This document shows positions 19,839 to 43,534 of a DNA stretch of 64,000 bases, in pieces. The position numbers and the translations under genes are program-made. Source of the stretch: Chloroflexota bacterium (GTDB taxonomy: Bacteria > Chloroflexota > Limnocylindria > QHBO01); the NCBI GenBank assembly GCA_040902225.1, contig JBBDXT010000002.1, positions 30,036 to 94,035 on the forward strand. The letters run 5' to 3'. The notes under the pieces were generated by a model that saw nothing but the letters and a program-made list of their open reading frames with translations, had not been told where the DNA came from and did no database searches. How positions within the stretch are numbered: the first letter of the stretch is position 1; every line of letters starts with the position of its first letter.

Positions 19839-20743
19839 GCTGCAGCCTCCAGGTCAGTCCCTCGATAATCGAGCATAGGGTCGGCAGGATCGGGGTTCAA
19901 CGCGCGGTCGGGCGCGTGGTCGGTGGGAATCACCACGCTGCGCGCGCGATCGAACGGTTCCTCGTCGAGCTGGACCAGCGTCATCCTTAGCCGCGCGTCC
20001 TCCGGCATGCGCGGATTCCCGCAGGCGTTGGAGTCGACCGCCAGCAGACGGCCTCCCTGCATGACGCGAATGCCGTACGGTCCCGGGCTGTGTCCAAAGA
20101 CGACGCGCTCGATCCCCGTGGCGCGGAAGCGTTCGAAGGCTCCCGAGCCCCACGGCGTCTCGTAGAACTCGGCGCGCACCCACAGGTGCGCATCGGTCGT
20201 CAGTCCCAGCTCGTCCAGCGCGGCGCCGGGCGGCAGCCCGCCATGCACGAACACCACGTCGTGCCAGCGCACCGCCTGCGGCAGGGTGGCGAGCCATGCG
20301 AAGAGGCCGGGTGCCAGCGCCTCGACGCCCGCCAGCGCGGCGTCGTCCTGGAGCGGGTCCGGCGGGGCGCAGCCGAACGACTGCAGGGTGGCGTGTCCGC
20401 CGTAGGCGAGCCAGACCGGCAGCCACTGGTGGCGCCCGCGGGAGAGGTGCAGCACCATCTCCTCGTGGTTGCCACGGATGAAGATCGCGCGACCGGCGGC
20501 GGCCGCGGCCTCGGGCTCGAGGCGCCGCAGCAGGGCGAGGACGCGCTGGCTGTCGGCGCCGCGGTCGAGGTAGTCGCCGCAGCCGAGCAGAGCGGTGCGC
20601 GGCGGCGCCACCCAACGCAGCGAACGGTCAAGCAGCCCAGCCTCGATGAGCGCAGCCTCCAGCCCGGTCGCGACGCCGTGCGGATCCGAGAAGGTCCAGA
20701 CCGTCCAGTCGTCCGGCACGTGGGAGATCCGCTCGCCGGTCAT
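19832..20743 (-). CDS. metallophosphoesterase (ApaH/PPP-type)
   Basis: Only the C-terminal 303 aa of ORF 19832..21310 look real (start MTGERISHV at 20743). Motifs FSDPHG, GDYLDRG, GNHE, VHGG. 7-nt overlap with the E1 start. Confidence 0.8.
   Translation of the reverse strand: MTGERISHVPDDWTVWTFSDPHGVATGLEAALIEAGLLDRSLRWVAPPRTALLGCGDYLDRGADSQRVLALLRRLEPEAAAAAGRAIFIRGNHEEMVLHLSRGRHQWLPVWLAYGGHATLQSFGCAPPDPLQDDAALAGVEALAPGLFAWLATLPQAVRWHDVVFVHGGLPPGAALDELGLTTDAHLWVRAEFYETPWGSGAFERFRATGIERVVFGHSPGPYGIRVMQGGRLLAVDSNACGNPRMPEDARLRMTLVQLDEEPFDRARSVVIPTDHAPDRALNPDPADPMLDYRGTDLEAAAW
19862..19900 (-). promoter_or_regulatory. candidate internal promoter plus operator for the E1/E2 operon, embedded in the 3' end of the phosphoesterase gene
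   Basis: The minus strand reads TTGAAC (19900-19895), a 17-nt spacer, TATGCT (19877-19872), with TCGATTATCGA (19872-19862) sharing the last T of the -10. The site lies 23 nt upstream of the E1 ATG and is followed by SD GGAGG. Confidence 0.55.
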
Positions 20744-20887
20744 CGATGAGGGGAGGCGGGGCCAGTCGCGACCGATGGACAGGCGCTGCGTGCGGTCGCC
20801 GTGGACGGCCGGCGGTGGGTGCCGCGATACAATTCGCCGGCGACCCGCCGGCGTTTGCCCGCAAGGGTCGAATTCGGAGGTCGGCCG

Positions 20888-21595
20888 ATGGCAGAGCAGG
20901 GCGCCCTGTCGCGCAGCGTGCTCGCGGACGAAGTGAAGGATCGGCTCCTGCAGGACATCCTCTCCGGCCGATACCCGCCCCACGCGCGCATCGTGGAGAC
21001 GACGGTCGCCAAGGAGCTCGGCATCAGCCAGGCGCCGGTCCGCGAGGCGCTCCGCGGGCTGGAGGCGACGGGGATCGTCGAGATCCTGCCGTTCCGCGGT
21101 GCCCGCGTCCGCAGGCCCACGACGGCCGAGCTGCTCGAGGCGATCAACGTCCGCGCCGAGCTCGAGACGCTTGGTGCCCGGCTCGCCGTGCCGCGCATGA
21201 GCGAATCGGACCTTGCCGAGCTGCTGGCTCACGGCGAGGAGCTGCGACGGGCCGCCGCGTCCGGCGATGCGCACGCCCTTGCGCTGGCGGACGCCGGGTT
21301 CCATGGCCACATCATCGCCCTGAGTGGCAATGCCACCTTGCGCCGTGTCTGGCAGTCACTCGAGCCGTTCTCGCGCACGTACATCACGGCCGCCATTCCG
21401 GGCGTGGACGTGCATTGGACGGCCGCTCTCCACTGGCCGATCCTGGACGCGCTGCGCCTGCGCGACCCGGAGCTGGTGGCGGATGCCCTGCGTCAGCACT
21501 TCGACAAGGCGGGGTCGAAGATCAATGCCGGCTGGCCGAGCGCGCTGCCGGAGTCGACCGACGGGAATGCGGAGGCCGGTCCCGCACGCGCCTGA
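20888..21595 (+). CDS. GntR family transcriptional regulator (FCD/FadR-type C-terminus), paralogue 1
   Basis: Start set at MAEQGALSRS (ATG 20888, SD cggagg). wHTH ELGISQAPVREALRGLEATGIVE. Helical C-terminal effector domain. Confidence 0.85.
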   Translation: MAEQGALSRSVLADEVKDRLLQDILSGRYPPHARIVETTVAKELGISQAPVREALRGLEATGIVEILPFRGARVRRPTTAELLEAINVRAELETLGARLAVPRMSESDLAELLAHGEELRRAAASGDAHALALADAGFHGHIIALSGNATLRRVWQSLEPFSRTYITAAIPGVDVHWTAALHWPILDALRLRDPELVADALRQHFDKAGSKINAGWPSALPESTDGNAEAGPARA

Positions 21596-21614
21596 CGCCG
21601 GTCATTCATGCGCG

Positions 21615-22562
21615 TCAGCTGTCGGCCCATTGCATGGCGCGAACCTGGTCCGCCACCTTCGCGGCCGACAGGCCGTAGAGGTCCAGCAGGACGTCGTTGG
21701 GCGCCGACACGGTGTACGTGTCCTGGAGACCGATCCGCCGCAGTGGCGTCGGACGTTGCTCGGCCAGCACTTCGGCCACCGCGCCCCCCAGGCCGCCGAT
21801 GACGGTGTGCTCCTCGACGGACACCAGCCGCCCGGTGCGATCGGCGGCCGCCACGATCGCAGCAGCGTCGAGCGGCTTGAGGGTGGGGAGGTGGAGCACT
21901 GCCGCGTCGATGCCGTCCGCGGCGAGGAGATCGGCGGCATCTACCAGGCGCGGGGTCTGGGCTCCCGTGCCGATGAGCGTCAGGTCGCCTCCACGACGCA
22001 CCTCGACGGCCGCTCCCACTCGGAAGGCGTAGGCGTCATCGAACAGGCGCTGGGTAGCGTCGCGAACGATCCGCACGTAGACCGGGCCGTCATAGCCCGC
22101 CGCCCAGCGGATGACCTGCGCCGCCTCCACGTCATCGGCCGGGGAGACGGTGACCATGCCCGGCATGGCTCGCATGATCGAGATGTCGTCCACGATTTGG
22201 TGCGTCTTGCCGGCCATGCCCGTGAACAGGCCGGCATAGCCGGCCGTCAGCTTCACGTTGAGCCCCGTCTGCGCGATCAGCACCCGGACCTGGTCGAGCG
22301 GCCGCACCACGGCGAACGAGACGAACGTGCTGATGAACGGGATGAGGCCCATGGTCGCCAGGCCCGCGGCCACGCCGATCATGTTCTGCTCGGCGATTCC
22401 CATCTGCAGAAAGCGGTCGCGATGGGCGTGCTCGAAGATGTCGGCCTTGGTGGAGCTTCCCAGGTCGCCGTCGAGCATGACGATGCGCGGGTCGTCGTCG
22501 GCGAGCTGCGCAACCGTCTCGCCGAACACCTCACGCATGGCGCGGCCCATCGGCAGGCTCAT
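21615..22562 (-). CDS. transketolase family protein, C-terminal (pyrimidine-binding) subunit
   Basis: FLQMGIAEQNMIGVAAGLATMG, MRAMPGMVTVSPAD. ATGA overlap with the upstream N-terminal subunit gene. Confidence 0.9.
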   Translation of the reverse strand: MSLPMGRAMREVFGETVAQLADDDPRIVMLDGDLGSSTKADIFEHAHRDRFLQMGIAEQNMIGVAAGLATMGLIPFISTFVSFAVVRPLDQVRVLIAQTGLNVKLTAGYAGLFTGMAGKTHQIVDDISIMRAMPGMVTVSPADDVEAAQVIRWAAGYDGPVYVRIVRDATQRLFDDAYAFRVGAAVEVRRGGDLTLIGTGAQTPRLVDAADLLAADGIDAAVLHLPTLKPLDAAAIVAAADRTGRLVSVEEHTVIGGLGGAVAEVLAEQRPTPLRRIGLQDTYTVSAPNDVLLDLYGLSAAKVADQVRAMQWADS

Positions 22563-23437
22563 GCCCCTGCCTCGCCCAGCTCGCCCATCGCCGCCGCGAA
22601 CTCCTCGGGCTTGATTGGCTTGCTATGCCAGCGGTAGTCGCCCTCCATGAACGACACGCCGCGTCCCTTGACGGTGTGGGCAACCACCACCGTCGGCCGG
22701 GTCGTTCGATCCACGGCCGCTTCCAGGCTGGCCACCACGGCGGCCATGTCGTGCCCATCCGTCTCGAGCACGCGCCAGCCGAAGGCCCGCCACTTGGCAA
22801 CCAGCTCTCCCGGCTCCTCGGGCGGCAGCCGGACATCGGACGTCTCGCCGGGCCAGCCGTACTGCTGCAGCTTGTTGTGGTCCACGATGGCGATCAGGTT
22901 GTCCACTCCGTAGCGCGCCGCCACGAACGCGGCCTCCCAGACCTGGCCCTCCTGGCATTCCCCGTCTCCGAGGAGCACAAAGGTACGCACGTCGCGCTGC
23001 GCGAAGCGTGCGCCCAGGGCCATGCCCAACCCCGCGGAGAGGCCCATGCCCAGCGAACCGGTGGACATGTCGATGCCGGGCAGCAGCCGCATGTCGGGGT
23101 GACCCTGCAGCCGCGATCCGAGCGAGTCGAAGGTGCGCAGCTCGTCCACCGGGAGGTAGCCGCGCAGGGCCATGGCCGCGTACTGGACCAGCGAGGAGTG
23201 GCCCTTGGACAGGATGAACCGATCGCGATCGGGCCAGTCCGGCTCGTCTGGTCGAATGCGCAGCACCCGGAAATAGAGGGCGGCCAGGATGTCGGCGGCC
23301 GACAGCGGTCCTCCAATGTGGCCCACCTGCGCGTGGTTGACGGTGCGGATGATCTCGACGCGGATCCGCCGCGCCATCTCGCTCAGCTGCGCGATCACCG
23401 GGCTGTCCGTGGTTCCGACGCCCCGGGCGGTCGTCAC
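22559..23437 (-). CDS. transketolase family protein, N-terminal (TPP-binding) subunit
   Basis: GHIGGPLSAADILAALYF, ILSKGH, LLGDGECQEGQVWEAA. ATGA overlap with the upstream cupin gene. Confidence 0.9.
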   Translation of the reverse strand: MTTARGVGTTDSPVIAQLSEMARRIRVEIIRTVNHAQVGHIGGPLSAADILAALYFRVLRIRPDEPDWPDRDRFILSKGHSSLVQYAAMALRGYLPVDELRTFDSLGSRLQGHPDMRLLPGIDMSTGSLGMGLSAGLGMALGARFAQRDVRTFVLLGDGECQEGQVWEAAFVAARYGVDNLIAIVDHNKLQQYGWPGETSDVRLPPEEPGELVAKWRAFGWRVLETDGHDMAAVVASLEAAVDRTTRPTVVVAHTVKGRGVSFMEGDYRWHSKPIKPEEFAAAMGELGEAGA

Positions 23438-23802
23438 CCACCCCCTCCGCGCTCGTACGAGCCGGGCACCACCGGCGGCGAGAAGAGGCAGACGAGCTCC
23501 AGGGGCTCGGGTCCGTCCGACTCGGTGGCGTGGAAGGTGCCGACCGGGATGAAGACCGATACGCCCGGCTCGAGCTCCGCGGTCGCCTCTGGCGTCACCA
23601 ACCGGCCCCGACCGGCGATAACGTAGATCGTCTCCTCTTCGGCAGCGTGAACGTGTCCCTCCGGCTTCGAGCCGGGAGGGAAGATCGCCACGCCCACCGA
23701 CACGTTGCGCGCGGGGCTGTTATGCGGCGCGATGTACGTGTACCAGTCCCGTCCGGGGAGCGGGAGGTGCTGAGCCTCTCCGCGGGTGACGCGCTTGATC
23801 AC
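23434..23802 (-). CDS. cupin domain protein
   Basis: 122 aa. Cupin motif 1 PEGHVHAAEEETIYVIAGRG and motif 2 GVSVFIPVGTFH. GTG start 23802. Confidence 0.8.
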   Translation of the reverse strand: MIKRVTRGEAQHLPLPGRDWYTYIAPHNSPARNVSVGVAIFPPGSKPEGHVHAAEEETIYVIAGRGRLVTPEATAELEPGVSVFIPVGTFHATESDGPEPLELVCLFSPPVVPGSYERGGGG

Positions 23803-23900
23803 GCGGGCACCATGAGGATCCGCGGCCCTGGTGCGGTGGTGGTCGTGCGCGTTTCGGTGGTCACGTAACGGTTCTCCTCGGCGTGCTTCCCCTGCCGACG

Positions 23901-24995
23901 TCAGGATGCGCGCGGATCAGGGTCCGGCAGGACGAGGTCACGGACCGCGCCCATGAGGTCGTGGTACGACTTGATGAATGCGCGCAGGGTCCGTGCCGAC
24001 GCGCCGAAGGCCTCGAACTCGTCGGGCGTCATGCCGTCCGGCTCGTAGGCCCGCCGGAAGTCGGGGACCCGCGCGGCCAGCTCGTCGACGATCGCCGGGT
24101 CGACGGGGACCTGCATGCGCGGCTCGGGGCGGATCCCGCTGCGATTGAAGCGAACCTGCCAGGCGTGGGGCATGGTCATGGCAACATCGCCGCCCACCAG
24201 CTCCGTCCAGTGCAGTCGGTGGCGGTAGGCGGCGGCCAGCAGGCGGGGGCGATAGCCGCGCTCCTGGAAGAGCGCATACGCTCGCTTGAAGACGGCGATG
24301 CCGGCCCAGTTCGGAGCCCCTGGATCGAGTGCGATGTCGTCGCGCTCGACGAGGACCTTCACCCAGTCGTCCAGGCGGCCGATCATGAGCGTGCAGATCG
24401 GGGTCAGAGAGCTCGTGTCGTGGCCGGCCCGCTCGCGCCGCTCCAGTCCGCGCCCGACCGCCTCGGCGACCGCGATCGCCTGCGGGAGCGTGAAGTTGAC
24501 GGTGGCGTTGATGTTGATGCCGTGGAAGGTCGCCTCCTCGATGCCGACCATCCCCGCCGCGGTGGCGGGAAACTTCACCAGGAGGTTCGGCGCCAGCCCG
24601 TCGAAGCGGAGCGCCTGCTCCAGCATCCGCTCCGGATCGCGATAGTTGGCCGGGTTGAGCTGCACGGAAAGCCGCCCCTTGCGGCCCCCCTCGCGCTCGA
24701 AAACGGGCTGCAGCACAGCGGCCCCGCGGGCAACCATCTCCTCGACCAGGGCCCACGTCAGGTCCACTTCGCTCCACGTCGAATGGGTCGCGGCGAGCTC
24801 GTGGACGCGGGGTACCCAGTGCGACGCCTCCTTCCTGAGGACCTCGTGTACGATGGTCGGGTTCGATGTCGCACCGGTCGCTCCGCGCTCCACGGCGTAG
24901 GCAAGCTCGTCAACGGCGCACGAGTCGTTCCAGTAGTCAGTCGGCGTGTCCTGGACCATGCGGAGAAGAGGGCTTTCGGTGGCCGCCAGCGTCAT
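23901..24995 (-). CDS. transaldolase family protein (long type)
   Basis: TDYWNDSC, GATGATSNPTIV, active-site-Lys context LLVKFPAT. SD GGAGGGA 5 nt before ATG 24995. Confidence 0.85.
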   Translation of the reverse strand: MTLAATESPLLRMVQDTPTDYWNDSCAVDELAYAVERGATGATSNPTIVHEVLRKEASHWVPRVHELAATHSTWSEVDLTWALVEEMVARGAAVLQPVFEREGGRKGRLSVQLNPANYRDPERMLEQALRFDGLAPNLLVKFPATAAGMVGIEEATFHGININATVNFTLPQAIAVAEAVGRGLERRERAGHDTSSLTPICTLMIGRLDDWVKVLVERDDIALDPGAPNWAGIAVFKRAYALFQERGYRPRLLAAAYRHRLHWTELVGGDVAMTMPHAWQVRFNRSGIRPEPRMQVPVDPAIVDELAARVPDFRRAYEPDGMTPDEFEAFGASARTLRAFIKSYHDLMGAVRDLVLPDPDPRAS

Positions 24996-25058: not shown

Positions 25059-25069
25059 TCGATTATCGA
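25059..25069. promoter_or_regulatory. operator-like palindrome TCGATTATCGA upstream of the transaldolase operon
   Basis: Exact 11-mer, 64 nt upstream of the transaldolase ATG (24995), in an AT-enriched patch (gctaATCATCGATTATCGATgc). Confidence 0.55.
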
Positions 25070-25104
25070 TGCCCAACTGGCAACAGGGCCATCCGGCCCG
25101 CTTC

Positions 25105-25187
25105 CCGGTGACGAAGAGCACAGGCGACGCCGCTTGACGCGCTTACGCTGGTTCCATATCGTCATTCCATCGACAATCGATTATCGA
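25105..25187 (+). promoter_or_regulatory. promoter cassette A: conserved 17-mer, -35, -10 and TCGA-array operator
   Basis: CCGGTGACGAAGAGCAC (25105-25121), TTGACG (25134-25139), 17-nt spacer, TATCGT (25157-25162), TCGACAATCGATTATCGA (25170-25187). The same order and near-identical boxes recur at 38522-38602. Confidence 0.6.
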
Positions 25188-25559
25188 GGAGCACCCGGCG
25201 GCGCGGTGCGCACCGGCGGCAATCCGCTATGAGAGGTGGAGCATTGCCGATCGCGAGATAGCCGGGCCGCCCAGTTCCAATGGGCGCGCCCACGACGCGC
25301 TGCACGCAAAGGACCAGGGCGAGGCGCCCCCCGGCAGTGGCGAAGGAGATACAGGTAAACGATCGACCGGCACGCATCCGGCCGTCCGCCCCATGCCGGC
25401 GCTCACGAATCAGCCGCGCGCCACGCCATACGCCTTCGGCCGAGCCAGGACGGGCTCACCGCCACGGGCCGGCTCAACGTCGCAACGTCACGCAACCCTG
25501 ACCTCGGCGGGTCCCGGCCGGTCGGAGCCGAGAGCAGACCACACCTGGAGGTGACCTCG

Positions 25560-27341
25560 GTGGCGATCAAGGAAGAAGTCCTCGGCCAGTTCCTCGGGAA
25601 CGAAGAGTTCCCGGTGACCTGGGAATCCGAGACGGAGAGCGAGCTCTTCTGGGTCTACGACGACCTTCACTGCCCCCATCCATTGAGCCCGATGTACTTC
25701 GACATCGGCGGGTGGTGGCTCACCTGTGACCACATGTTCCGCCGCTTCGGGACGCCGTTCGCCTGCGACTGGCTGGCCAAGAACGTCAACGGCTACCTGT
25801 ACACCGCTGCCATTCCGGCCGATCCCGAGTACGCCATCGACGCCATGGAATACCAGGCGCGCTACGTCGCACGAACGCCCCACATGGCCGGCTACCCGGA
25901 GAAGATCGGTGTCTACCTGAACAAGGTGCTGCCCGTCTACGGGCTTCAATTCGCCGATTGGTGGCGCGATCGGCTGGTGCCGGAGATGGACCGCAACTTC
26001 GCCTATCTCGAGAGCCGGCTGGACGAGGCCGACAACATGTCGCTCGCCGAGCTGGCCTGCCTGCTCGAGGACGCGATCGACATCCACGATCGGCACTGGA
26101 AGATCCACTGGATGCTGAACTTCGCCCAGCTGTCGGCCACGCTCAACCTGCGGGCGGTGATGGAGAGGACGCACGGCAAGATCGACGAGGCGCTGCTCGG
26201 CCGGCTGCAGAACTCGGCCAAGGACCGCAACTGGGACTCGATCGAGGCGCTGTGGAGGATGAAGGAGGAGGCCAGGGCGGATTCGGAGCTGGCAGCTGCC
26301 TTCCGGCACGAGACGGCCGGTGACATCCGGACGGCCCTCGAGGCCTCGAACCATGGCCGCCGCTTCATCGCCGAACGCGTCGAGCGCTACCAGAAGGAGT
26401 TCGGCTGGCATGCGGTGTGGAGCCACGAGTTCATCTTCCCGACTGTCCGGGAGCAGATGGAGCCCGTCCTGGAGCTGATCCGCGGCTACATGGAGACCGA
26501 CTACGACTACCCAAAGACGATCAAGGCGGTCGCGGACGACATCGATGCCGCGGCGAAGGAGATCCTGCAGGGCCTCGAGGGCGAGGCGCTCGAGGAGATG
26601 CGCGCCGCCAACGACATCAACCTGCGGATGGCGCCGCTCACGCCGGATCACCACTTCTACATCGACCAGGGAGCCAATGCGCACGTGCGCCTGGTCCTGG
26701 TCGCCATCGGCAAGAAGCTGGTCGCCGACGGCGTCCTCGACCAGCCAGACGACGTGATCATGCTTCGCTACAACGAGCTGCGCGTGCTCCTGGGCGACGC
26801 ATCGGTGCTGGACGGTCGCCCCATCGTGGCGCAGCGTCGCGCGGAGCGGGAGGCGTCGTACCTGAAGCGGCCGAAGGACTGGATCGGCACCGTCACGCAG
26901 TCCCAGCTCGACTTCCCGTACCTGAACCTGTGGGGCTTCCCGGACAAGTTCTACCGCAAGGAGTCGACCGTGGCAGGGGAGGTCACCGGCATCGGCGGCT
27001 CGCCGGGCGTGGTCGAGGGGATCGCGCGCGTGGTGCTCACCGAGGACCAGTTCGACGAGGTCCGCGCCGGCGACATCCTGGTCTGCCAGATGACGAACCC
27101 GGCGTGGGTCGTCCTGTTCACGAAGATCGTGGGTCTGGTGACCGATGCCGGTGGCACGGTTTCGCATCCGGCGGTCCTGTCGCGTGAGTTCGGCATCCCG
27201 GCCGTGATCGGCTCGTCGGTTGCGACACAGCAGATCAAGTCGGGCGACCGGATCCGGGTCGACGGAACGCGGGGCGTGGTCGAGATCCTCGAGACGACGG
27301 GCCCCAAGGCTCCCGCGCCAGAAGCCGAGTTCGTGGCCTGA
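25560..27341 (+). CDS. PpsA-like PEP-utilising (swivelling phosphohistidine) domain protein lacking an ATP-grasp domain
   Basis: ORF 25551..27341. I prefer GTG 25560 because SD GGAG ends at 25550. The C-terminal mobile domain GGTVSHPAVLSREFGIPAV has its His codon at 27165-27167. N-terminal ~450 aa start like phenylphosphate synthase alpha subunits as I recall them (ELFWVYDDLHCPHPLSP). Confidence 0.8.
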   Translation: MAIKEEVLGQFLGNEEFPVTWESETESELFWVYDDLHCPHPLSPMYFDIGGWWLTCDHMFRRFGTPFACDWLAKNVNGYLYTAAIPADPEYAIDAMEYQARYVARTPHMAGYPEKIGVYLNKVLPVYGLQFADWWRDRLVPEMDRNFAYLESRLDEADNMSLAELACLLEDAIDIHDRHWKIHWMLNFAQLSATLNLRAVMERTHGKIDEALLGRLQNSAKDRNWDSIEALWRMKEEARADSELAAAFRHETAGDIRTALEASNHGRRFIAERVERYQKEFGWHAVWSHEFIFPTVREQMEPVLELIRGYMETDYDYPKTIKAVADDIDAAAKEILQGLEGEALEEMRAANDINLRMAPLTPDHHFYIDQGANAHVRLVLVAIGKKLVADGVLDQPDDVIMLRYNELRVLLGDASVLDGRPIVAQRRAEREASYLKRPKDWIGTVTQSQLDFPYLNLWGFPDKFYRKESTVAGEVTGIGGSPGVVEGIARVVLTEDQFDEVRAGDILVCQMTNPAWVVLFTKIVGLVTDAGGTVSHPAVLSREFGIPAVIGSSVATQQIKSGDRIRVDGTRGVVEILETTGPKAPAPEAEFVA

Positions 27342-27354
27342 CCGGCACGCCTCG

Positions 27355-28053
27355 ATGTCCCGAGAGGCCTCGGTCTCGCGCTTGGTGCTGAGCGAACAGG
27401 TCAAGGATCGCCTCCTCCAGGCGATCCTTGACGGACGCTTCCCGCCCGGCGCCCGGATCGTCGAGACGCGCGTCGCGCGCGAGCTCGGCATCAGCCAGGC
27501 GCCGGTGCGGGAGGCTCTGCGCGACCTTCAGGCGCTCGGGCTGGTCGAGGCGTCGGCCTTCCGGGGCGCCCGTGTTCGACGGCCCAGCGCTGAGGAGCTG
27601 CTGGAGGCGTTCGTGGTCCGATCGCAGCTCGAGTCGCTCGCCGCACGACTGGCAGTCACGACCATCACCGACCGCGACGTCGACCAGCTGACCGGGTACC
27701 TCGGCGAGATGCGCCGTGCCGCCCGTGCAGATGATGCTCGCGCCGAGGCGATGGCCGACGCGATGTTCCACGGCCGCCTCATAGAGCTGTCCGGCAACGC
27801 CACGCTGCAGCGCGTGTGGCGCCAGCTTGAGCCGGTGTCGCACACCTACATCACGCTGGTCATTCCGGGAGCCGATCGACATCTGATCGCGGATGTCCAC
27901 CAACCGGTCCTGGACGCGCTCCGCCATCGCGACGCCGCGGGCGCCACGGACGCGCTCGACCGGCACTACCTGTTCCTGGGTGCCATGCTGACCGAGCTGT
28001 GGACGGCCGCTCCCACGACGCACGACCCACTCCTGACCGAAAGGACACGATGA
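27355..28053 (+). CDS. GntR family transcriptional regulator (FCD-type), paralogue 2
   Basis: Start set at ATG 27355 (MSREASVSRLVL). ELGISQAPVREALRDLQALGLVE. Clearly paralogous to 20888..21595 over the full length. Confidence 0.85.
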   Translation: MSREASVSRLVLSEQVKDRLLQAILDGRFPPGARIVETRVARELGISQAPVREALRDLQALGLVEASAFRGARVRRPSAEELLEAFVVRSQLESLAARLAVTTITDRDVDQLTGYLGEMRRAARADDARAEAMADAMFHGRLIELSGNATLQRVWRQLEPVSHTYITLVIPGADRHLIADVHQPVLDALRHRDAAGATDALDRHYLFLGAMLTELWTAAPTTHDPLLTERTR

Positions 28054-28952: not shown

Positions 28953-28970
28953 GAAGGCGCGCGCCCCACC

Positions 28971-36672: not shown

Positions 36673-36716
36673 GACGGTCTCCTTCCGGTGGGCCGAGGTC
36701 ACGCCTCGGCAGCTCC

Positions 36717-37583
36717 TCAGCGGCCTGCCGGGACGGCGGTCAGCTTGTCGTAGAGCGATCCGGCGTTCAGCGTCTGGATGTGCTCCATCATGTAGCCCTG
36801 GCCGACGTCGACCGGGTAGCGATCGGCGAAGTTCACCCGTGCGATCGTCTCCTCGCGTGTCCAGCCCTTGGCAACGGCGGCGGCGACGGCCGCCTTCCAT
36901 TCGAGCAGCACCGAGCGCTGCGTGTCGAGGTAGCGGGTGGTGGTGACCGGGCCGTGCCCTGGCACGAGGTGGTCCACGTCCAGCGCCTTGATCCGATCCA
37001 GCGCCTCGAGCCATTGCTCCACGTTCGAGGTCATGAGCCAGGTCTGGCACTCGTTGAAGACGGTGTCACCGGTGAAGACGACGCGCTCCTCCGGCACGTG
37101 GACGGCGAGCTGGCCGGGCGTGTGACCCGGCGTGTGGAGCAGCCGGAAGGTGTGGTCGCCGACCCGCAGGGTCACGTCGCCGGTGAACACGATCGTGCCC
37201 TTGTTCGGATCGGCATAGTAGGCGTCCCGCTCCGGGAACAGGGTGGCGCCATCGGGGTCATCGGTTGGGATGGCCTCCCTGGCGTACTCGAACGGGTCCA
37301 GGTCCCGACCGGGAACCATGAAGTTGTCGTACAGGCCCTGGTGGTTGACGACCGTGCCGGCGCCCTTGAAGAAGTAGTTGCCGAAGATGTGGTCGACGTG
37401 GTGCTCGGTGTTGATCAGATACCGGATCGGCCCCTTTGACTCCGCCTCCCGGCGCATCGCCACCGCCCGGGTGGGCAGCTGCGGCGTGTCGATGACGACG
37501 ACGCCATCGGTGGTGGTCACGTAGCTCGGATTGCAGCCGCGCTGGGTCGTGTCGGTGCAGACGTTGTCCGTCACGCGCTCCAT
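36717..37583 (-). CDS. MBL-fold metallo-hydrolase
   Basis: NTEHHVDHIFG (HxHxDH), LLHTPGHTPG, VPGHG. Confidence 0.85.
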   Translation of the reverse strand: MERVTDNVCTDTTQRGCNPSYVTTTDGVVVIDTPQLPTRAVAMRREAESKGPIRYLINTEHHVDHIFGNYFFKGAGTVVNHQGLYDNFMVPGRDLDPFEYAREAIPTDDPDGATLFPERDAYYADPNKGTIVFTGDVTLRVGDHTFRLLHTPGHTPGQLAVHVPEERVVFTGDTVFNECQTWLMTSNVEQWLEALDRIKALDVDHLVPGHGPVTTTRYLDTQRSVLLEWKAAVAAAVAKGWTREETIARVNFADRYPVDVGQGYMMEHIQTLNAGSLYDKLTAVPAGR

Positions 37584-37600
37584 GTGCCAGCTCCTCGTTG

Positions 37601-38431
37601 TTACTGCGTGGCGGTCAGCCCGCCATCGATGCCCAGGATCTGCCCCGTCACGAAGGCCGAGGCATCCGAGCAGAAGAAGATCGCCGCCCCTACCAGATCA
37701 TCCGTGCCGCCAACGCGGCCGAGCGGAATGCGCTTCACGATGTTGGCCTTGAACTCCGGATCGCCGAGCAGCATGGCGACCTGGGGGGTGTCGACGAAGG
37801 TCGGCGAGATGGCGTTCACGGTGATCCCGTGCTTCGCCCATTCGGTCGCCCATTGCCGCGTGAGAGAGCTGATGGCGCCCTTGGCCGCGACGTACGCGGA
37901 GTAGCCGGCGTTGATGCCCAGCGCGGCACGCACCGAGCTGATGTTCAACACCCGACCGCCGTGCCCGGCCGCGATCATGGCCCTGACCGCGGCCTGCGTT
38001 GGCACCAGGGTGCTGCGGACGTTCAGGTCGTAGATCCAGTCCCACGCCTCGGCCGGGTACTGCTCTGCGTCGAAGAGCACCTTGCCGGCGCCGCCGCCCA
38101 CGGCGTTCACGACGATGTCCACGCGGCCAAGCTGGTCCAGCACATGAGCCACCATCCGATTCGACTCGCCCGCGTTGGTCACGTCGGCCGCAAGCGCGAG
38201 GCAGGTCCCACCCTGCGCCCGAATCGGCGCCGCTGCCTCCTCCAGCCGCTCGCGCGAGCGGCCGACCACGGCGACCTGCGCCCCGGCGGCAGCGAGGGCC
38301 GCTGCGATGGCTGAGCCGATGGCTCCCCCGCCCCCCGGAATGAGGGCTACCCGCCCGTCGAGGCGAAAGGCGTCCAGCGGGTTCACAGCCTCTGGGTCAC
38401 GGCGCTGCAGGGGCCAGAGCGGCGGGCCCAT
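37601..38431 (-). CDS. SDR family oxidoreductase
   Basis: ALIPGGGGAIG, NAVG, catalytic YSAYVAAK. The start is ambiguous. ATG 38431 sits only ~10 nt from the operator/-10 (near-leaderless). GTG 38386 gives a more typical SDR N-terminus. Confidence 0.85.
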   Translation of the reverse strand: MGPPLWPLQRRDPEAVNPLDAFRLDGRVALIPGGGGAIGSAIAAALAAAGAQVAVVGRSRERLEEAAAPIRAQGGTCLALAADVTNAGESNRMVAHVLDQLGRVDIVVNAVGGGAGKVLFDAEQYPAEAWDWIYDLNVRSTLVPTQAAVRAMIAAGHGGRVLNISSVRAALGINAGYSAYVAAKGAISSLTRQWATEWAKHGITVNAISPTFVDTPQVAMLLGDPEFKANIVKRIPLGRVGGTDDLVGAAIFFCSDASAFVTGQILGIDGGLTATQ

Positions 38432-38440
38432 GGCTTATCA

Positions 38441-38479
38441 TCGATTATCGAGGATAGGGATTGTCCTTTATCCAGTCAA
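38441..38479 (-). promoter_or_regulatory. candidate promoter plus operator for the SDR-MBL-ADH operon
   Basis: The minus strand reads TTGACT (38479-38474), a 17-nt spacer, TATCCT (38456-38451), with TCGATAATCGA (38451-38441) sharing the last T of the -10. This is the same architecture as the E1 promoter. Confidence 0.55.
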
Positions 38480-38521
38480 CTCGAATCCGTCCCCTGGTCG
38501 ACGGGCCGTTCAGCCCCCGTG

Positions 38522-38602
38522 CCGGTGACGAAGAGCACGGGATTTCGGAGTCTTGACTGGCCTAACAGGAGCGCCTATCGTCGATCGACAATCGATTATC
38601 GA
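38522..38602 (+). promoter_or_regulatory. promoter cassette B: conserved 17-mer, -35, -10 and TCGA-array operator
   Basis: CCGGTGACGAAGAGCAC (38522-38538), TTGACT (38553-38558), 17-nt spacer, TATCGT (38576-38581), TCGATCGACAATCGATTATCGA ending at 38602. It lies upstream of the ABC importer operon. Confidence 0.6.
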
Positions 38603-38792
38603 GGACCCGAGCTGCCCCCGTCCCGAGCCAGTCGGGTCGATAGCCCGCAGCGTGGAGAGATGTCCTGTGCCGAGGCCGACACCCATCGGGATGGGGAGAG
38701 AGCAGGACGCTGGACGAACGACGACGAAACGTCCGTACGTGTGCACACCTAATGGCGTGACGCCACCCCGCCCCAGGCAAGGGTGACGGCTG

Positions 38793-39665
38793 ATGGACTT
38801 CGTGATCCAGGCCCTGATCATCGGCGTCACCGAGCACGCACCGCTCGTGCTGGCGGCGATCGGCTTCGCGCTGCTCTACCGCCTCACCGGCCTTATCAAC
38901 GTGGCGTATTCCGAGACGATCACGCTTGGCGCGTACTTCGGCGTGTGGGCCAACACGACCTTCGGCCTCGACTTCTTCACCGTCCTGGTGCCCGCGGGAC
39001 TGATGGCCGGCCTCGTCAGCGTCGCGACATACCTGCTCATCTTCCGGGTGGCGAAGCAGCGCAAAGTGGGCGTGCTGGAGATGATCATCATCTCCTTCGG
39101 GCTGTCGATCTTCCTGCGGCATGGGCTGCAATTCGTCTTCGGCTACCCGGTGCGCTTCTTCGACGTACCGCCACCCGAGACCATCCGGATCCTCGGCGTG
39201 GGGGTGTCATCGTTCCGCCTCCTCGCCTTCGCCAGCCTCGTCGTGCTGGCACTGGCGATCTACTGGTTCATCCAGCGATCCCGCTACGGCCTCCAGATCC
39301 GCGCGCTTGCCAGCGACGAAGAGCTGGCGCAGGTGAGCGGGATTCGGCCGCTCGCCGTCACCACCCTCATCTGGTTCATCGCCGGCTTCGCCGGCGGGCT
39401 GGCGGGCGCGTTCTACGGCGTCGCGTCGTCCGTCGCGCCACTCCTCGGCTGGCGGCAGTTCCTCTTCGTCCTGCTCGTCGTCCTGGTCGGCGGCACCTGG
39501 GGGCTGCGCGGGGTCATTGCCGTGGGCGTGGCAACCGGCGTGGCGCTGGCCGCCATGTCGCTGCAGTTCGGCCAGGTGCTGTACGCCCAGCTGGCCCTGA
39601 TCGTCGCCTTCCTGGTGATCCTGAAGTGGCGCGGGCGCCGGCTCACCGAGACGGCGAAGGTGTAA
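38793..39665 (+). CDS. branched-chain-amino-acid-type (HAAT family) ABC permease, LivH-like
   Basis: 290 aa polytopic protein, MDFVIQALIIGVTEHAPLVLAAIGFALLYRLTGLINVAY... is typical of LivH-family permeases. Confidence 0.85.
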   Translation: MDFVIQALIIGVTEHAPLVLAAIGFALLYRLTGLINVAYSETITLGAYFGVWANTTFGLDFFTVLVPAGLMAGLVSVATYLLIFRVAKQRKVGVLEMIIISFGLSIFLRHGLQFVFGYPVRFFDVPPPETIRILGVGVSSFRLLAFASLVVLALAIYWFIQRSRYGLQIRALASDEELAQVSGIRPLAVTTLIWFIAGFAGGLAGAFYGVASSVAPLLGWRQFLFVLLVVLVGGTWGLRGVIAVGVATGVALAAMSLQFGQVLYAQLALIVAFLVILKWRGRRLTETAKV

Positions 39666-39669
39666 TGAC

Positions 39670-40620
39670 ATGACCCTCGACTGGCTCGACGCGTTCCTCA
39701 TCTCTGGCCTGTTCGAGGTCGTGATGGTGATCGGTCTCGGGCTGCTGCTCCATCTCGAGCTCGGATTGGCGCGGATCGCCAACTTCGGTGTCGTCGGCTT
39801 CTGGGGCGTGGGGATGTACGCCTTCGGCGTGCTCTACGTGCAGGTGGACTGGCCATTCGGCGATCCGCTGCAGTTCCTGGTCTGCGCGGCCATCGCGACG
39901 ATCGTCGCGGGGCTCTGCGGCCTCCTGGTCGGATGGCTGATCGCCGACCTCGACACCGACGGGGTGCTGGTCGGGACGCTCGGGTTCGCCGCAGCCGTGC
40001 TCATCCTGGCGACCACGCAGCAGGACCTCACCGGCGGCGCGCTGGGAATGGGCGGTCTTCGGTTCCCCTACGACATCGGCAGCGTCAAGGCCAACGAGCT
40101 GCTGTGGCTGGTCATCACCGCCGTCGTGGTCGTCGCGATCCTCGTCTTCGTGTGGCGGGTGCACCGCTCGCCGTACGGGCGCCTGCTAATCGCGGTCGGC
40201 AGCAACGAGCCGCTGGCGCGCAGCCTGGGGAAGCCGACCTACCGCGCAAAGGTCTGGCTGTTCGCCATCGCGTCGGCCGGGATGGGGCTGCTCGGCGCCA
40301 TGTACGGGGTAAATGTGCGCTTCCTGGAGATCTCCAACCTCGGCGTGGATATCACCCTCGCCGCCATGGTGGGGCTGGTGCTGGGAGGCACACTGCGGGT
40401 TTGGGGGGCAGTCGTCGGGGTGGTTCTCAGCGTGGGCCTGTTCGACATCGTGATCCAGTCGTACATCCCCTTCCCCCGCGAGTGGTACACGCAGGCCATC
40501 CCCGTTCTTAGGGAGGCCGTATTTGGAGCCACCCTGATCGGCGTCCTGCTGTTCCGGCCGCTGGGCGTGCTCGGCGACATGCGGCGCGACAGGTTGATGA
40601 GGAAGATCCATGGTCGCTGA
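39670..40620 (+). CDS. HAAT family ABC permease, LivM-like
   Basis: 316 aa polytopic protein following the LivH-like gene. Contains the LivM-like GGxxG-rich loop LTGGALGMGGL. Confidence 0.85.
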   Translation: MTLDWLDAFLISGLFEVVMVIGLGLLLHLELGLARIANFGVVGFWGVGMYAFGVLYVQVDWPFGDPLQFLVCAAIATIVAGLCGLLVGWLIADLDTDGVLVGTLGFAAAVLILATTQQDLTGGALGMGGLRFPYDIGSVKANELLWLVITAVVVVAILVFVWRVHRSPYGRLLIAVGSNEPLARSLGKPTYRAKVWLFAIASAGMGLLGAMYGVNVRFLEISNLGVDITLAAMVGLVLGGTLRVWGAVVGVVLSVGLFDIVIQSYIPFPREWYTQAIPVLREAVFGATLIGVLLFRPLGVLGDMRRDRLMRKIHGR

Positions 40621-41404
40621 CGTGGTTTCGGCCGGCGCGGTCACCCGTCCCCAGATCCGGATCCGGGGCGCCGTCAAGAGCTTCTCCGGTCGGGTCGTGG
40701 TCGACGTCGACGATCTCGTCCTGGGCGACCAGCCCATCGAGGGGCTCATCGGTCCGAACGGCGCCGGCAAGACGACCCTGATGCGCATGGTCATGCACTC
40801 GATCCCGCTCGACCGCGGCACGGTATCTCTCGTCACGAGCGGAGGCGCGGAGGTGGTGCTCTCGGAACTGCCGGCCTATCGGATGGCGCACCACGGCGTG
40901 GTCAAAAGCAACCAGGTCATCATGGACTTCGACAAGCTGACCATCTGGGATTCACTCCTGCTGGCAGTCACCGAGGAGTCGTACGAGCGGCCGCATCGCA
41001 TCTTCAGCGAGCGGGTCGCATTCGCCCGCCACGAGGAGGATATGCGCAGGCTCCTGGACTACTTCGGGTTCACCGACGCCACGAGCTTCGCGAGGTCGGC
41101 AGGCCAGAAGAAGCTGCTGGACATCGTCCGCTGCCTGCTCCTCAGGCCCACGTTCCTGCTGCTCGACGAGCCGACGGCCGGCCTTCCCGAGGAGCTCACG
41201 GAGAAGGTGATGACCATCATCAGGGAGCTTGCCGCCGGCGGAACCGCGGTGATCATCGTGGAGCACGACCTCAACGTCATCTGGAACCTCTGCGACGAGG
41301 TCGCCTTCATGGCCGAGGGCAGCGTCATCTTGAAGGGCGACCCGCAGACCATTCGCGAGCACCGCACCGTCGTCGAGAAGTACCTCGGAGAGGGCCATGT
41401 CTGA
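40610..41404 (+). CDS. HAAT family ABC ATP-binding protein, LivG-like
   Basis: Walker A GPNGAGKTTL. Degenerate signature SAGQKKLL. Walker B LLLDEPTAGL. Confidence 0.85.
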   Translation: MVADVVSAGAVTRPQIRIRGAVKSFSGRVVVDVDDLVLGDQPIEGLIGPNGAGKTTLMRMVMHSIPLDRGTVSLVTSGGAEVVLSELPAYRMAHHGVVKSNQVIMDFDKLTIWDSLLLAVTEESYERPHRIFSERVAFARHEEDMRRLLDYFGFTDATSFARSAGQKKLLDIVRCLLLRPTFLLLDEPTAGLPEELTEKVMTIIRELAAGGTAVIIVEHDLNVIWNLCDEVAFMAEGSVILKGDPQTIREHRTVVEKYLGEGHV

Positions 41405-42113
41405 GACGACCGGACCGATGGCTCTCGAGGCAGAGGGCCTGCGCAGCGGCTATGACGCGGTCACTGTTCTGAAGAGCCTCGATCTCACCGTCCGGAACGA
41501 GATCTTCGCCGTGCTCGGGGCCAACGGCGCAGGGAAGACCACGCTGCTGGCGACCCTGGCCCGCCTCATCCCGCTCATGGCGGGCACGATCCGCTTCCTG
41601 GGCGAGGATGTGTCCACGCTGCCGCCCTACGAGACGGCCAGCCGCGGCATGGGCTACGTGCCGCAGGAGAATGGCACCTTCCCGGACCTCACCGTCCTCG
41701 AGAACCTGAGCGTGGGCGGCATGATCGGCGAACGCTCGCGCGACGACCGGATGGCCGAGGTGTTCGAGCTGTTCCCCGACCTCCGGACCAAGCAGGCGCA
41801 GACGGCCGGGACCCTCAGCGGCGGCGAGTCGCGTATGGTGGCCTGCGGGCGGGCCCTCATGCAGGATCCGCGGCTCCTGCTCCTCGACGAGCCCACCGCG
41901 GGACTGTCCCCACTCTACGTCGACATGTTCTTCGAGAAAATCAGGGAGATCCACCAGACCCGCGGGGTCGCCATCATCCTGGCCGAGCAGAACGCCACGA
42001 AGGCGCTTGAGGTCGCGGACCGGGTGATGGTGCTGACCCTTGGCAAGGCGTACGCAGTGATGGACGCCGCAGACCTGACCACGGAGCAGCTCAAGGAGGC
42101 ATACCGCATCTGA
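41397..42113 (+). CDS. HAAT family ABC ATP-binding protein, LivF-like
   Basis: GANGAGKTTLL, LSGGESRMVACGRAL, LLLLDEPTAGLSP. Confidence 0.9.
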   Translation: MSETTGPMALEAEGLRSGYDAVTVLKSLDLTVRNEIFAVLGANGAGKTTLLATLARLIPLMAGTIRFLGEDVSTLPPYETASRGMGYVPQENGTFPDLTVLENLSVGGMIGERSRDDRMAEVFELFPDLRTKQAQTAGTLSGGESRMVACGRALMQDPRLLLLDEPTAGLSPLYVDMFFEKIREIHQTRGVAIILAEQNATKALEVADRVMVLTLGKAYAVMDAADLTTEQLKEAYRI

Positions 42114-42151
42114 TGACCCACCCATTGGCGCAGGACACAGGAGGAGGAACA

Positions 42152-43534
42152 GTGATTATCCGTAGCATCAGGCAGGGGCGAATAGTGGCCGTCCTCATGG
42201 CGCTCGCCCTCCTCGCCGCCGCGTGCGGCACCGGCACCTCGCCCGGGGCGTCGGCCGATGGCTCGACCGCGCCGGCGCCGTCGGTGTCGGACGAGCCGGT
42301 TGCGGTCTGCGAGCTGGCCTACTACACGGGCGAGTTCGGGGCCTTCGGCACGTCGCTCACGGAGGACGTGGTCTTCCCGGTCGAAGAGGTGATCAACCTC
42401 GACCCGCCCCTGGGCCGCTCGTGGGAGCTCTTCCACGAAGACCTCGGGACGGTCGGGGAGGCCCAGGCGGCACGTACCTGCCTCGAGCAGCACGGTGCCG
42501 AGATCGTTGTGAGCATGGCCCACGGCTACAGGACCTACCGCGACTTCATGATGGAGTGGTGGGAGGAGAATGACTCGCCACTTGTGCCGTCGGTCCACGG
42601 CGGCGCTGTCCCCGGTAACCTCGGAGGCAAGGCCGCAGAGCCGATCTTCCGGGCACAGGGCCTCGACGAGGCGCTGGGCATGTCCGGCATCCTGTACGCG
42701 GAGGAGATCGGGGCCGAGTCGGTCGTGGTCTTCGCCACCCAGGTCGAGGGCTTCCAATTGGCGGCGAACGCCGCCGAGAACGCCGCAGAGGCGGTGGGCA
42801 TCGAGGTGCTCGCGCGCATCGACGTCCCTGCCGAGCAGCCCTCCTACGGGGCCGAGGCCCAGCGCATCGCCGCCCTGGCACCGGACGCCGTTATCGTCCA
42901 GGCCGGATCAGTAGAGTCTGCTTCGCTCATCAAGCAGGCGGCCGAGGCCGGCCTGTCGCTTAACTGGATCGGTGAGACCGGCTGGATCCAGACGGAGTTC
43001 ATGAATACGCTGGGCGCCGCCGCGATCGCCTCGCAGGAGGCGATCGGCTTCGCGGCCTTCTCGTACAACGACACCACCCCGGCCTGGGAGTTCTTCTCCG
43101 AGCTGTGGGAGAGCACGGCCCACACCGCGCCAGAGGACGCGGACCCGACGGGCCTGTACCACTTCTCGACGTACGACCTCCTCATCCAGACGGCACTCGC
43201 CGTCGAGTACGGGGGCTCGTACCTGGCAAGTGACTGGGCGCCGGCGATGCACGAGGTCGGCGAGGCACCGGGAGAGGTGTGCTACACGTACGCCGATTGC
43301 CTGGCCCTCATCCGCGACGGCGAGGACATCGACTACGAGGGCATCACCGGCACCGGCACGTACACCGATGGCGGCGTGAACCACGTCGTCCAGGCGTACA
43401 CCCCGTTCAATACGGACGGAACAGCCGGCACGCCCGTGATCCTCGATGCCGAGCGTGCGCTCGAGATCATCGAGCAGATCGCTGTTACGGCGGAGTGCAC
43501 GCCCGAAGATCCACCCAACGAGTGTGAGTGGTAG
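42152..43534 (+). CDS. ABC substrate-binding lipoprotein (Leu/Ile/Val-binding protein family-like)
   Basis: I prefer GTG 42152 (SD AGGAGGAGG 4 nt upstream) within ORF 42113..43534. Lipobox LLAAAC. Periplasmic-binding-protein-like alternation of beta/alpha segments. Confidence 0.8.
   Translation: MIIRSIRQGRIVAVLMALALLAAACGTGTSPGASADGSTAPAPSVSDEPVAVCELAYYTGEFGAFGTSLTEDVVFPVEEVINLDPPLGRSWELFHEDLGTVGEAQAARTCLEQHGAEIVVSMAHGYRTYRDFMMEWWEENDSPLVPSVHGGAVPGNLGGKAAEPIFRAQGLDEALGMSGILYAEEIGAESVVVFATQVEGFQLAANAAENAAEAVGIEVLARIDVPAEQPSYGAEAQRIAALAPDAVIVQAGSVESASLIKQAAEAGLSLNWIGETGWIQTEFMNTLGAAAIASQEAIGFAAFSYNDTTPAWEFFSELWESTAHTAPEDADPTGLYHFSTYDLLIQTALAVEYGGSYLASDWAPAMHEVGEAPGEVCYTYADCLALIRDGEDIDYEGITGTGTYTDGGVNHVVQAYTPFNTDGTAGTPVILDAERALEIIEQIAVTAECTPEDPPNECEW

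Follow-up and report, generated by a model that had tools for sequence, protein, structure and literature searches.

A gene cluster with five palindromic sites

The window analysed here is a stretch of 64,000 nucleotides from a Chloroflexota bacterium of the Limnocylindria lineage (contig JBBDXT010000002.1). It carries a gene cluster of five predicted transcription units (TU1 to TU5), and upstream of these lie five copies of an A/T-rich 11-bp palindrome, TCGATTATCGA, which are treated below as candidate operators. The genes were mapped by GC3-based gene calls, Pfam and NCBIfam searches, and independent gene calls on a syntenic relative. The units encode an E1/E2 complex, a transaldolase-cupin-transketolase set, a long main operon with phosphotransfer and Mo-hydroxylase genes, a short-chain dehydrogenase/reductase (SDR) grouped with a metallo-beta-lactamase-fold (MBL) hydrolase and an alcohol dehydrogenase (ADH), and an ABC importer. 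Two regulators with GntR and FCD domains, GntR1 and GntR2, are encoded within the cluster. The coordinates of all features are given in Table 1.

Table 1. Candidate operators, transcription units and genes of the cluster (positions in the window; bits, scores with the position weight matrix described in the text)
Feature	Position	Strand	Description
O-E1	19862-19872		TCGATAATCGA on the + strand; 22.4 bits, weakest of the five
O-TAL	25059-25069		extended form CATCGATTATCGATG; 28.0 bits; 64 nt upstream of the transaldolase ATG (24995)
O-PEP	25170-25187		three TCGA boxes, TCGAcaaTCGAttaTCGA; 26.1 and 26.4 bits
O-SDR	38441-38451		TTATCATCGATTATCGAGGATAG; 32.8 bits, best of the window sites; identical in relative L201
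O-Liv	38585-38602		three TCGA boxes; 24.2 and 26.5 bits
TU1	16269-19838	-	E1 and E2 (Pfam)
Fused E1 alpha/beta	17523-19838	-	
E2 acyltransferase	16269-17507	-	
Metallophos	19832 to ~20743	-	TGA overlaps the E1 ATG (ATGGTGA, 19832-19838)
GntR1	20888-21595	+	GntR/FCD regulator, between the Metallophos-E1-E2 and transketolase units
TU2	21615-24995	-	transaldolase, cupin and transketolase (Pfam)
Transaldolase (TAL)	23901-24995	-	
Cupin	23434-23802	-	
Transketolase, N-terminal subunit	22559-23437	-	
Transketolase, C-terminal subunit	21615-22562	-	
TU3	25551-35600	+	main operon, RPH-like PEP-utilizer to PPDK-like protein; gene order conserved in 80 loci
RPH-like PEP-utilizer protein	25551-27341	+	
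GntR2	27355-28053	+	GntR/FCD regulator inside the main operon
unk300	28050-28952	+	300 aa, PEPCK/HprK-like fold
CoxM/S/L-type Mo hydroxylase	28971-32574	+	
Cyclase	32571-33455	+	
PPDK-like protein	33480-35600	+	706 aa
TU4	35617-38431	-	SDR, MBL and ADH
SDR	37601-38431	-	37601-38386 in the relative's gene call
MBL-fold hydrolase	36717-37583	-	
Zn-ADH	35617-36693	-	
TU5	38793-43534	+	Liv-type ABC importer: two permeases, two ATPases, Peripla_BP_6 binding protein

An exact-string search finds exactly five copies of TCGATTATCGA in the window, one on the minus strand (19862-19872) and four on the plus strand (beginning at 25059, 25177, 38441 and 38592), in agreement with a first-pass annotation of this DNA. 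One copy lies upstream of E1, two in the divergent region between TAL and the PEP-utilizer gene, and two in that between SDR and LivH. The sequence has the symmetry of a 5+1+5 palindrome, and it is conspicuous because the window has a G+C content of ~70%. In 100 dinucleotide shuffles the average is 0.01 copies and the highest count 1, none reaching five, and the analytical expectation for the A/T-centred 11-mer under Markov models of orders 0 to 3 is at most 0.02, so that even a single copy would be unexpected in 64 kb, as had been argued in the annotation.

Two other points made there, that the motif occurs nowhere else in the window and that two sites extend into arrays of TCGA boxes with 7-bp phasing, were borne out as well. 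No further intergenic site is found with up to two mismatches. When one mismatch is allowed, the search adds only TCGACAATCGA at 25170 and 38585, each sharing one TCGA box with an exact copy; these overlaps generate two three-box arrays, TCGA-CAA-TCGA-TTA-TCGA, with a 7-bp period (25170-25187 and 38585-38602), and this three-box pattern has no further occurrence in the window. With a position weight matrix (PWM) trained on orthologous loci, the seven window sites score 22.4-32.8 bits. The next position in the window, at 15.9 bits, is only the 38441 site read with a 7-bp shift; of the independent sub-threshold positions the best reaches 10.3 bits. The latter is a single-hexamer palindrome, TCATCGATGA (20740-20749), over the predicted start codon of Metallophos in the Metallophos/GntR1 divergent region, and could be a weak site for the control of GntR1 and/or Metallophos.

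Conservation of the sites across orthologous loci

An alignment of unk300 was used to search species-representative genomes and gave 80 orthologous loci, which with their 10-kb flanks amount to 1.36 Mb. Most are metagenome-assembled genomes (MAGs) of Ca. Limnocylindria/Chloroflexota, with several from Acidimicrobiia/Actinomycetota; the species of the window is not included, and the best-matching locus is 82% identical. A tblastn search with the window proteins shows the conserved order PEP-utilizer, GntR, unk300, CoxM(S)L, cyclase, in some cases ADH, and then the PPDK-like gene, with transaldolase, MBL-SDR, the Liv importer, transketolase and E1/E2 near this core. The A/T-centred 11-mer occurs 51 times, in 33 of the loci, against an expectation of 0.1-0.5, and the 11-mer with any central base occurs 116 times against 3-11 expected (Markov orders 1-3 in both cases). 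The exact 11-mer of the first-pass annotation has its five real copies in the window, but the motif that emerges from the relatives is more general: TCGAT-N-ATCGA, with a free central base and conserved A/T-rich flanks, or AT(A/C)ATCGAT-N-ATCGAT(G/T)AT in full.

An iterated symmetric PWM of 23 nt was built from 219 sites and used with a threshold of at least 16 bits; tblastn-confirmed coding sequence (773 kb) yields no score above 15.7 bits. With this threshold the 80 loci contain 113 arrays, none of which falls within a confirmed gene; in 99 cases the array points at the 5' end of a cluster gene no more than 600 nt away. Their targets are PEP-utilizer (50), transaldolase (45), LivH (14), SDR (14), cupin (5), transketolase (4), the PPDK-like gene (3), GntR (3) and E1 (2), and the median distance of the TAL-facing arrays from the gene is 72 nt. 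Where the cupin-transketolase genes stand apart from TAL, they carry an operator of their own. The remaining arrays face further Liv permeases or binding proteins, a split E1 alpha subunit, an aldehyde dehydrogenase, a UPF0261 protein and a ROK protein. Three or four TCGA boxes with a 7-bp period are present in 60 of the 113 arrays, two-box sites being about as common.

All five operator positions are kept in the closest relative, which is syntenic (L201/L202, 88% identical at unk300). Further, when the intergenic region of the window is aligned with those of three other loci (L003, L004 and L008), conservation is limited to the -35 (CTTGAC), the -10 and two operator blocks. A complete-genome scan for the exact string or a PWM had been expected to show strong enrichment at this locus. 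In the 80 loci and their flanks the motif is strongly enriched; across metagenomes, as described below, the palindrome is enriched at the cluster without being exclusive to it.

Exact-string searches of the other loci also return TCGATGATCGA within the cyclase gene and within another gene, located between SDR and TAL. We rejected these as coding coincidences, with GC-rich flanks and sub-threshold PWM scores. The cyclase copies (L008 15379, L011 15368, L012 14547, L029 15360, L045 15430, L055 12078 and L070 15378) have no counterpart in the window and are a trap for searches of this kind.

Position of the sites relative to promoters

Promoter-like sites with 17-nt spacers accompany the operators in both divergent regions. 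O-PEP begins 8 nt past the -10 of TTGACG/17/TATCGT (25134-25162, + strand), and therefore covers the predicted transcription start of the operon that runs from the PEP-utilizer to the PPDK-like gene. O-Liv begins 4 nt past the -10 of TTGACT/17/TATCGT (38553-38581, +), in front of the LivHMGF-SBP importer operon, and O-SDR overlaps the last base of the -10 of TTGACT/17/TATCCT (38479-38451, -), which serves the SDR-MBL-ADH operon. O-TAL, whose distance to the transaldolase start had been given correctly in the first-pass annotation (Table 1), additionally occupies the spacer and the -10 of a minus-strand promoter-like site that was absent from it, TTGCCA/17/GATGAT (25083-25055). Each of these four sites was called by the consensus scan with 9/12 matches, against ~0-0.1 expected. 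Transcription starts are predicted near 19865 (-), 25048 (-), 25169 (+), 38444 (-) and 38588 (+).

The fifth site is different. O-E1 lies 24 nt upstream of the E1 ATG, within the last ~40 nt of the Metallophos open reading frame, so it is not intergenic, and it abuts a weak minus-strand promoter-like site, TTGAAC/17/TATGCT (19900-19872; -35 at 19900-19895, -10 at 19877-19872), which has 8/12 consensus matches and was not called by the promoter scan. The site is kept in L003 and is degenerate in the closest relative (TCGATAGTCGA, 15.8 bits in L201/L202). Of the four copies that had been said to touch or follow a promoter, then, O-PEP, O-SDR and O-Liv do so at called sites, and O-E1 only at this weaker one. 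The proposal that a single regulator-binding motif unites the five units is supported by the recurrence of the same gene families behind the sites in 80 loci of two phyla, with the refinement that its E1 member is the weakest, coding and degenerate in the closest relative. In L201 (1-2696) the gene caller fuses Metallophos and E1 into one product of 1088 aa, and another relative has separate genes; E1/E2 may be transcribed from the Metallophos promoter as well as from the internal operator-controlled one.

Across the 80 loci, promoter-like sites have a background of 0.029 per kb-strand. They accompany 40 of ~140 site-gene pairs, which amounts to a more than 100-fold enrichment beside operators. 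For PEP-utilizer, LivH and cupin the operator starts -1 to +12 nt past the -10, and for TAL and SDR it overlaps the spacer or the -10. Since the operators overlap or directly follow the -10, this is the geometry of a repressor. Some FCD-family regulators activate transcription, and sequence alone cannot give the sign of regulation; moreover, the sites on the TAL and SDR sides fall in promoter spacers, a placement from which a few regulator families are able to activate. We nevertheless consider it improbable that GntR proteins bind these sites as activators or dual regulators rather than as simple repressors, because the operators cover the -10 or positions +1 to +20 at every called promoter-like site, as in classical steric repression, no site stands at -40 to -60, the typical position of an activator, and the location of a regulator gene within an operon that it targets is in keeping with negative autoregulation. 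DNA looping or cooperative pairing of the two operators of a divergent region was also considered and rejected: 17 such pairs, 18-255 bp apart, show no helical phasing (Rayleigh p = 0.95).

Two promoter segments of ~105 nt in the window, 25086-25190 and 38503-38605, are ~80% identical and share the -35, the -10, the operator array and a CCGGTGACGAAGAGCAC element ~10 nt upstream of the -35. One may ask whether the copies are passive, left over from duplication of a promoter cassette or belonging to a dispersed repeat, and serve no specific function in regulation. GTGACGAAGAGCAC, the upstream element common to both segments, is specific to the window and absent from all 80 orthologous loci, for which reason we rejected it as the site of a second regulator; the cassette that contains it most likely arose by a recent, lineage-specific duplication of a promoter. 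L004, L008 and L029 have the importer between transaldolase and PEP-utilizer, preceded by one promoter pair with the same operators, and the duplication may thus date from the separation of the importer operon from the main operon. As an account of the palindrome itself, however, a passive repeat is very improbable. Conservation of the operator extends over two phyla, at positions whose surroundings are not conserved. The window copies stand at five different promoters with different flanks; O-E1 apart, none is in coding DNA, and the other 40 kb of the window contain no copy. Nor is the distribution that of REP- or MITE-like elements, since all window copies are at cluster promoters and, of the 113 arrays in the loci, 99 are directed at the same gene families.

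An element acting at the RNA level, or a DNA methylation or restriction site, appears exceedingly improbable. O-PEP and O-Liv would be transcribed into long leaders of 364 and 190 nt, but an Rfam scan of the whole window returned no families, and the leaders are neither conserved (44% column identity over seven loci) nor structured (fold z = +0.39 against shuffles), so that a riboswitch or leader was rejected. In addition, a 5-bp stem with a 1-nt loop cannot form, and several of the sites lie upstream of the predicted transcription starts. ATCGAT and TCGA are the recognition sequences of ClaI and TaqI, respectively, and thus match known restriction-modification sites; avoidance of such a site was rejected too, ATCGAT being present 23 times in the window against 4.2 expected. 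The leaders of L010, L016 and L026 (alignment A5, columns ~262-300) contain a conserved CGGAGGTGGCGATCAC(G/C)G(A/C)G block ~100-150 nt upstream of the PEP-utilizer start. The leader alignment shows that this block is not in the window, and it could represent a ribosome-binding site plus the start of a small upstream open reading frame.

The GntR regulators and their association with the motif

Both regulators match the Pfam GntR domain (PF00392; E = 1.7e-15 for GntR1 and 1.2e-14 for GntR2) above the curated cut-off, as well as the FCD domain (PF07729; E = 8.4e-25 and 4.4e-25), and their best sequence matches in the PDB are FCD regulators (7xp0 at 5e-23, then 3c7j, 3ihu, McbR 4p9f and others). 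They are 57% identical to each other overall and 86% identical in the recognition core. In most loci an ortholog of GntR2 is found between PEP-utilizer and unk300. Its recognition helix, S-Q-A-P-V-R-E-A-L, is invariant, and the pattern G-x-S-Q-x-P-V-R-E-A-L is present in all 75 cluster GntRs whose match covers the helix. In the five solved FCD regulators that match best, Arg takes the place of this Gln and the helix reads S-R-x-x. In the FCD domain, residues D135, H139, H182 and H204, which are candidates for the Asp/His metal- and ligand-binding residues of the family, are invariant in an alignment of eight homologs down to 32% identity.

The two local GntR proteins had been put forward in the first-pass annotation as candidates for binding the motif. 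We analysed the co-occurrence of regulator and motif in those loci where both the PEP-utilizer gene and 300 nt or more of its upstream sequence are covered. Of 63 loci with the GntR gene, 61 carry the motif, both exceptions having incomplete upstream coverage, and among five loci without the GntR gene four have no site and one has a marginal match (16.2 bits) elsewhere (Fisher p = 9e-5, a statistic that ignores phylogeny). In these five loci PEP-utilizer runs straight into unk300 with no regulator between them. Together with the placement of the palindrome beside distant GntR homologs, described below, this association points to the local proteins as the probable binders.

Two GntR-less, motif-less loci, both actinobacterial (L065, 7438-8139, and L071, 7300-8016), have a conserved membrane protein of 233-238 aa immediately before PEP-utilizer. 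A similar unannotated gene family stands between TAL and PEP-utilizer in several metagenome contigs.

The palindrome in metagenomes

Metagenome contigs were scanned for the 19-bp palindrome ATMATCGATNATCGATKAT, which was found at at least 120 loci. Among the matches listed, 57 contigs have a G+C content of at least 60%, and in ~21 of them homologs of TAL, PEP-utilizer, SDR, cupin or GntR face the site at the usual distances. Independent support comes from four contigs among those listed that differ clearly in composition (48-62% G+C); they carry the palindrome 60-151 nt from the 5' end of the winged helix-turn-helix match of a GntR homolog that is 32-41% identical to GntR2, and in three of the four a TTGACA hexamer can be seen by eye upstream of the palindrome. 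The homologs of L143 and L169 are 79-86% identical to GntR2 over the 28-residue recognition core and 26-27% in the FCD domain; in L151, the third alignable homolog, the recognition core is more diverged (57%).

In L095, L109 and L116 (prefix CXWL01) and in at least ~30 other high-GC contigs, the palindrome stands 25-150 nt upstream of unrelated genes, among them an M28 peptidase, Fpg glycosylase, Metallophos, an aminotransferase, NAD kinase, GH18, an aldehyde dehydrogenase (ALDH) and others. The finding points to use of the palindrome in other organisms by related regulators or as part of a wider regulon. In L081 (11898) and L125 (5046) it is found 124 nt from a GntR-family gene whose helix starts differently, with V-S-L-G-V-V-R-E-A-L, and the Gln may therefore not be strictly required for the TCGA type of operator.

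These matches bear on whether a different, non-local transcription factor, global or paralogous, binds the motif, the association with the cluster GntR being incidental. Such a factor could explain the 19-bp palindrome beside heterogeneous genes with no GntR seen in the listed high-GC contigs, its presence in L081 and L125 beside a GntR with another type of recognition helix, and an operator without the canonical GT/AC of GntR sites. We consider this unlikely, because the motif tracks the cluster GntR (61/63 against 1/5 loci), no other regulator family is conserved in the cluster, the four distant contigs among the listed matches have the palindrome 60-151 nt from a GntR homolog of the same clade, and in these homologs the recognition helix is conserved far above the effector domain.

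Comparison with known GntR/FCD systems

The consensus operator of the FadR subfamily is an A/T-rich palindrome with TKGT/ACMA boxes that are usually 3 nt, or else 2 nt, apart; weaker extra boxes are common 7-12 nt from the centre, and divergent regions carry paired sites, each near its own promoter (PMC4494728). The cluster shares much of this. GntR1 and GntR2 have the winged helix-turn-helix plus FCD architecture of repressors such as PdhR, LldR, DgoR and GlcC; the operator is likewise A/T-rich and palindromic, its two 4-nt boxes being separated by 3 nt, and the third TCGA box is centred 10.5 nt from the dyad. Here too the regulator's own operon and its divergent neighbours have sites at their promoters, in pairs of which each member is near its own promoter. 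The differences concern the hosts, which are uncultured Chloroflexota and Actinomycetota, and recognition: the boxes are TCGA/TCGA instead of TKGT/ACMA, with A (96%) and T (96%) where the consensus has T and A, and the helix begins S-Q-A-P, compared with S-R-x-x in the solved relatives. In the same survey Arg is reported to prefer G, and Asn and Gln to prefer A, and NanR and BioR are named as non-conforming members (PMC4494728). It is plausible that TCGA stands in place of TKGT because the clade-invariant Gln replaces Arg, given that Gln tends to prefer A. We class the system as a GntR/FCD regulon with a non-canonical operator and not as a canonical FadR-type site, since the proteins have both defining domains whereas the operator lacks the GT/AC dinucleotides.

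Three characterised systems offer closer parallels for particular features. Corynebacterium glutamicum has two functionally equivalent GntR-type paralogs, also called GntR1 and GntR2 (PMC2230225). The present genome likewise contains two paralogs, which are expected to recognise the same sites; in contrast, both are encoded inside the regulated cluster, their redundancy is inferred, and the motif and the pathway differ. NanR of Escherichia coli, an FCD-type GntR repressor, binds a (GGTATA)3 repeat as three dimers (PMC8012715). Tandem short boxes are common to both systems, three or four TCGA boxes being present in 60 of the 113 arrays, but the present operators have a truly palindromic core, contain two boxes about as often as three, and differ in repeat unit and period. 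Finally, DipR is presented in its source as a GntR/FadR-family repressor of the dipicolinate catabolic (dip) cluster, widespread across bacteria (PMC11472048). To judge from that description, it resembles the proteins studied here in being a cluster-specific FadR-type repressor of a dedicated catabolic cluster, and it differs in pathway, operator and hosts, and in having been characterised experimentally, the regulon described here being a predicted one.

A predicted regulon

What we observe directly is the sites and how far they are conserved, where they stand relative to promoter-like hexamers, and that they co-occur with the regulator. These observations make it likely, in our judgement, that the motif is the operator of the clade of FCD-type GntR proteins that includes GntR1 and GntR2, and that each of the five promoters carries a promoter-blocking operator from which a metabolite releases the regulator. 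Binding, the sign of regulation and induction are what we infer from the sequences. A dimer of GntR2 and/or GntR1 would read two TCGA boxes 3 nt apart (TCGAT-N-ATCGA), aided by the A/T-rich flanks; in about half of the operators a third, weaker box lies 7 bp further on. With one operator per promoter, over the -10 and spacer or over the transcription start, the bound regulator would block RNA polymerase. A metabolite of the pathway would bind the FCD domain and release the regulator, and this would jointly induce the importer, the phosphotransfer/Mo-hydroxylase operon, SDR-MBL-ADH, transaldolase-cupin-transketolase and E1/E2. GntR2 is predicted to be negatively autoregulated from O-PEP, because it is encoded inside the main operon behind that site.

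Several points weigh against this reading. The co-occurrence statistic takes no account of phylogeny, and the GntR-less loci could be regulated from elsewhere. The operator, compared as a PWM with the published consensus (PMC4494728), lacks the canonical GT/AC dinucleotides. O-E1 is inside coding sequence, has a weak promoter (8/12) and is degenerate in the closest relative. Lastly, about two thirds of the listed high-GC metagenome matches adjoin unrelated genes with no GntR visible, mostly on short contigs, so the palindrome, hugely enriched as it is at the cluster, is not exclusive to this regulon or regulator.

A further-reaching proposal, which we make tentatively and would not rate as probable, is that these proteins form an undescribed, phylum-spanning clade of FCD-GntR regulators with a Ser-Gln-Ala helix. 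They would for that reason read TCGA and not TKGT, assemble on two to four boxes in 7-bp phase, possibly as several NanR-like dimers, and control an uncharacterised, extremely conserved catabolic module. We found no specific description in the literature of the motif, or of the cluster together with Limnocylindria. If such a clade exists, the effector of the regulator would identify the substrate of the pathway.

The encoded pathway and implications

The enzymes of the cluster give some indication of that substrate. The protein unk300 has no Pfam or NCBIfam family, but ~2,800 metagenomic homologs in Chloroflexota and Actinomycetota, 71-95% identical, and is always placed between the PEP-utilizer/GntR genes and the CoxMSL genes. 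Its AlphaFold model (pLDDT 74, pTM 0.76) matches the folds of ATP-dependent PEPCK (E ~2e-6) and HPr kinase/phosphorylase, and it has a P-loop motif, GGESNHGKS. Over residues 21-468 the PPDK-like protein scores 497.8 bits with the NCBIfam model PRK05878, 'pyruvate, phosphate dikinase', whose cut-off is 456, and its extra C-terminal ~230 residues match no Pfam or NCBIfam family. Because the set comprises RPH-like and PPDK-like proteins, a P-loop protein of PEPCK/HprK fold, a Mo hydroxylase and a cyclase-family hydrolase, together with a lactonase-like MBL, SDR, ADH, transaldolase/transketolase and the E1/E2 complex, it suggests a route in which a compound of polyol, keto-sugar or heteroaromatic type is activated by phosphorylation, is oxidised or hydroxylated, and undergoes C-C cleavage or rearrangement.

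The predicted regulatory logic is conventional, with a local autoregulated repressor and promoter-overlapping palindromes, and what the cluster very probably offers is a new, well-conserved example of an ordinary bacterial gene switch in uncultured Chloroflexota and Actinomycetota. For the abundant uncultured Ca. Limnocylindria and Acidimicrobiia of soil and freshwater, in which the cluster is highly conserved, it provides a regulon model that is well supported and can be tested. The operator/regulator pair is a handle on the inducer and hence on the substrate, and the PWM can delimit the regulon in MAGs. In addition, the pair would be an example of altered specificity in the FadR subfamily, Gln for Arg and TCGA for TKGT, useful for the rules of protein-DNA recognition.

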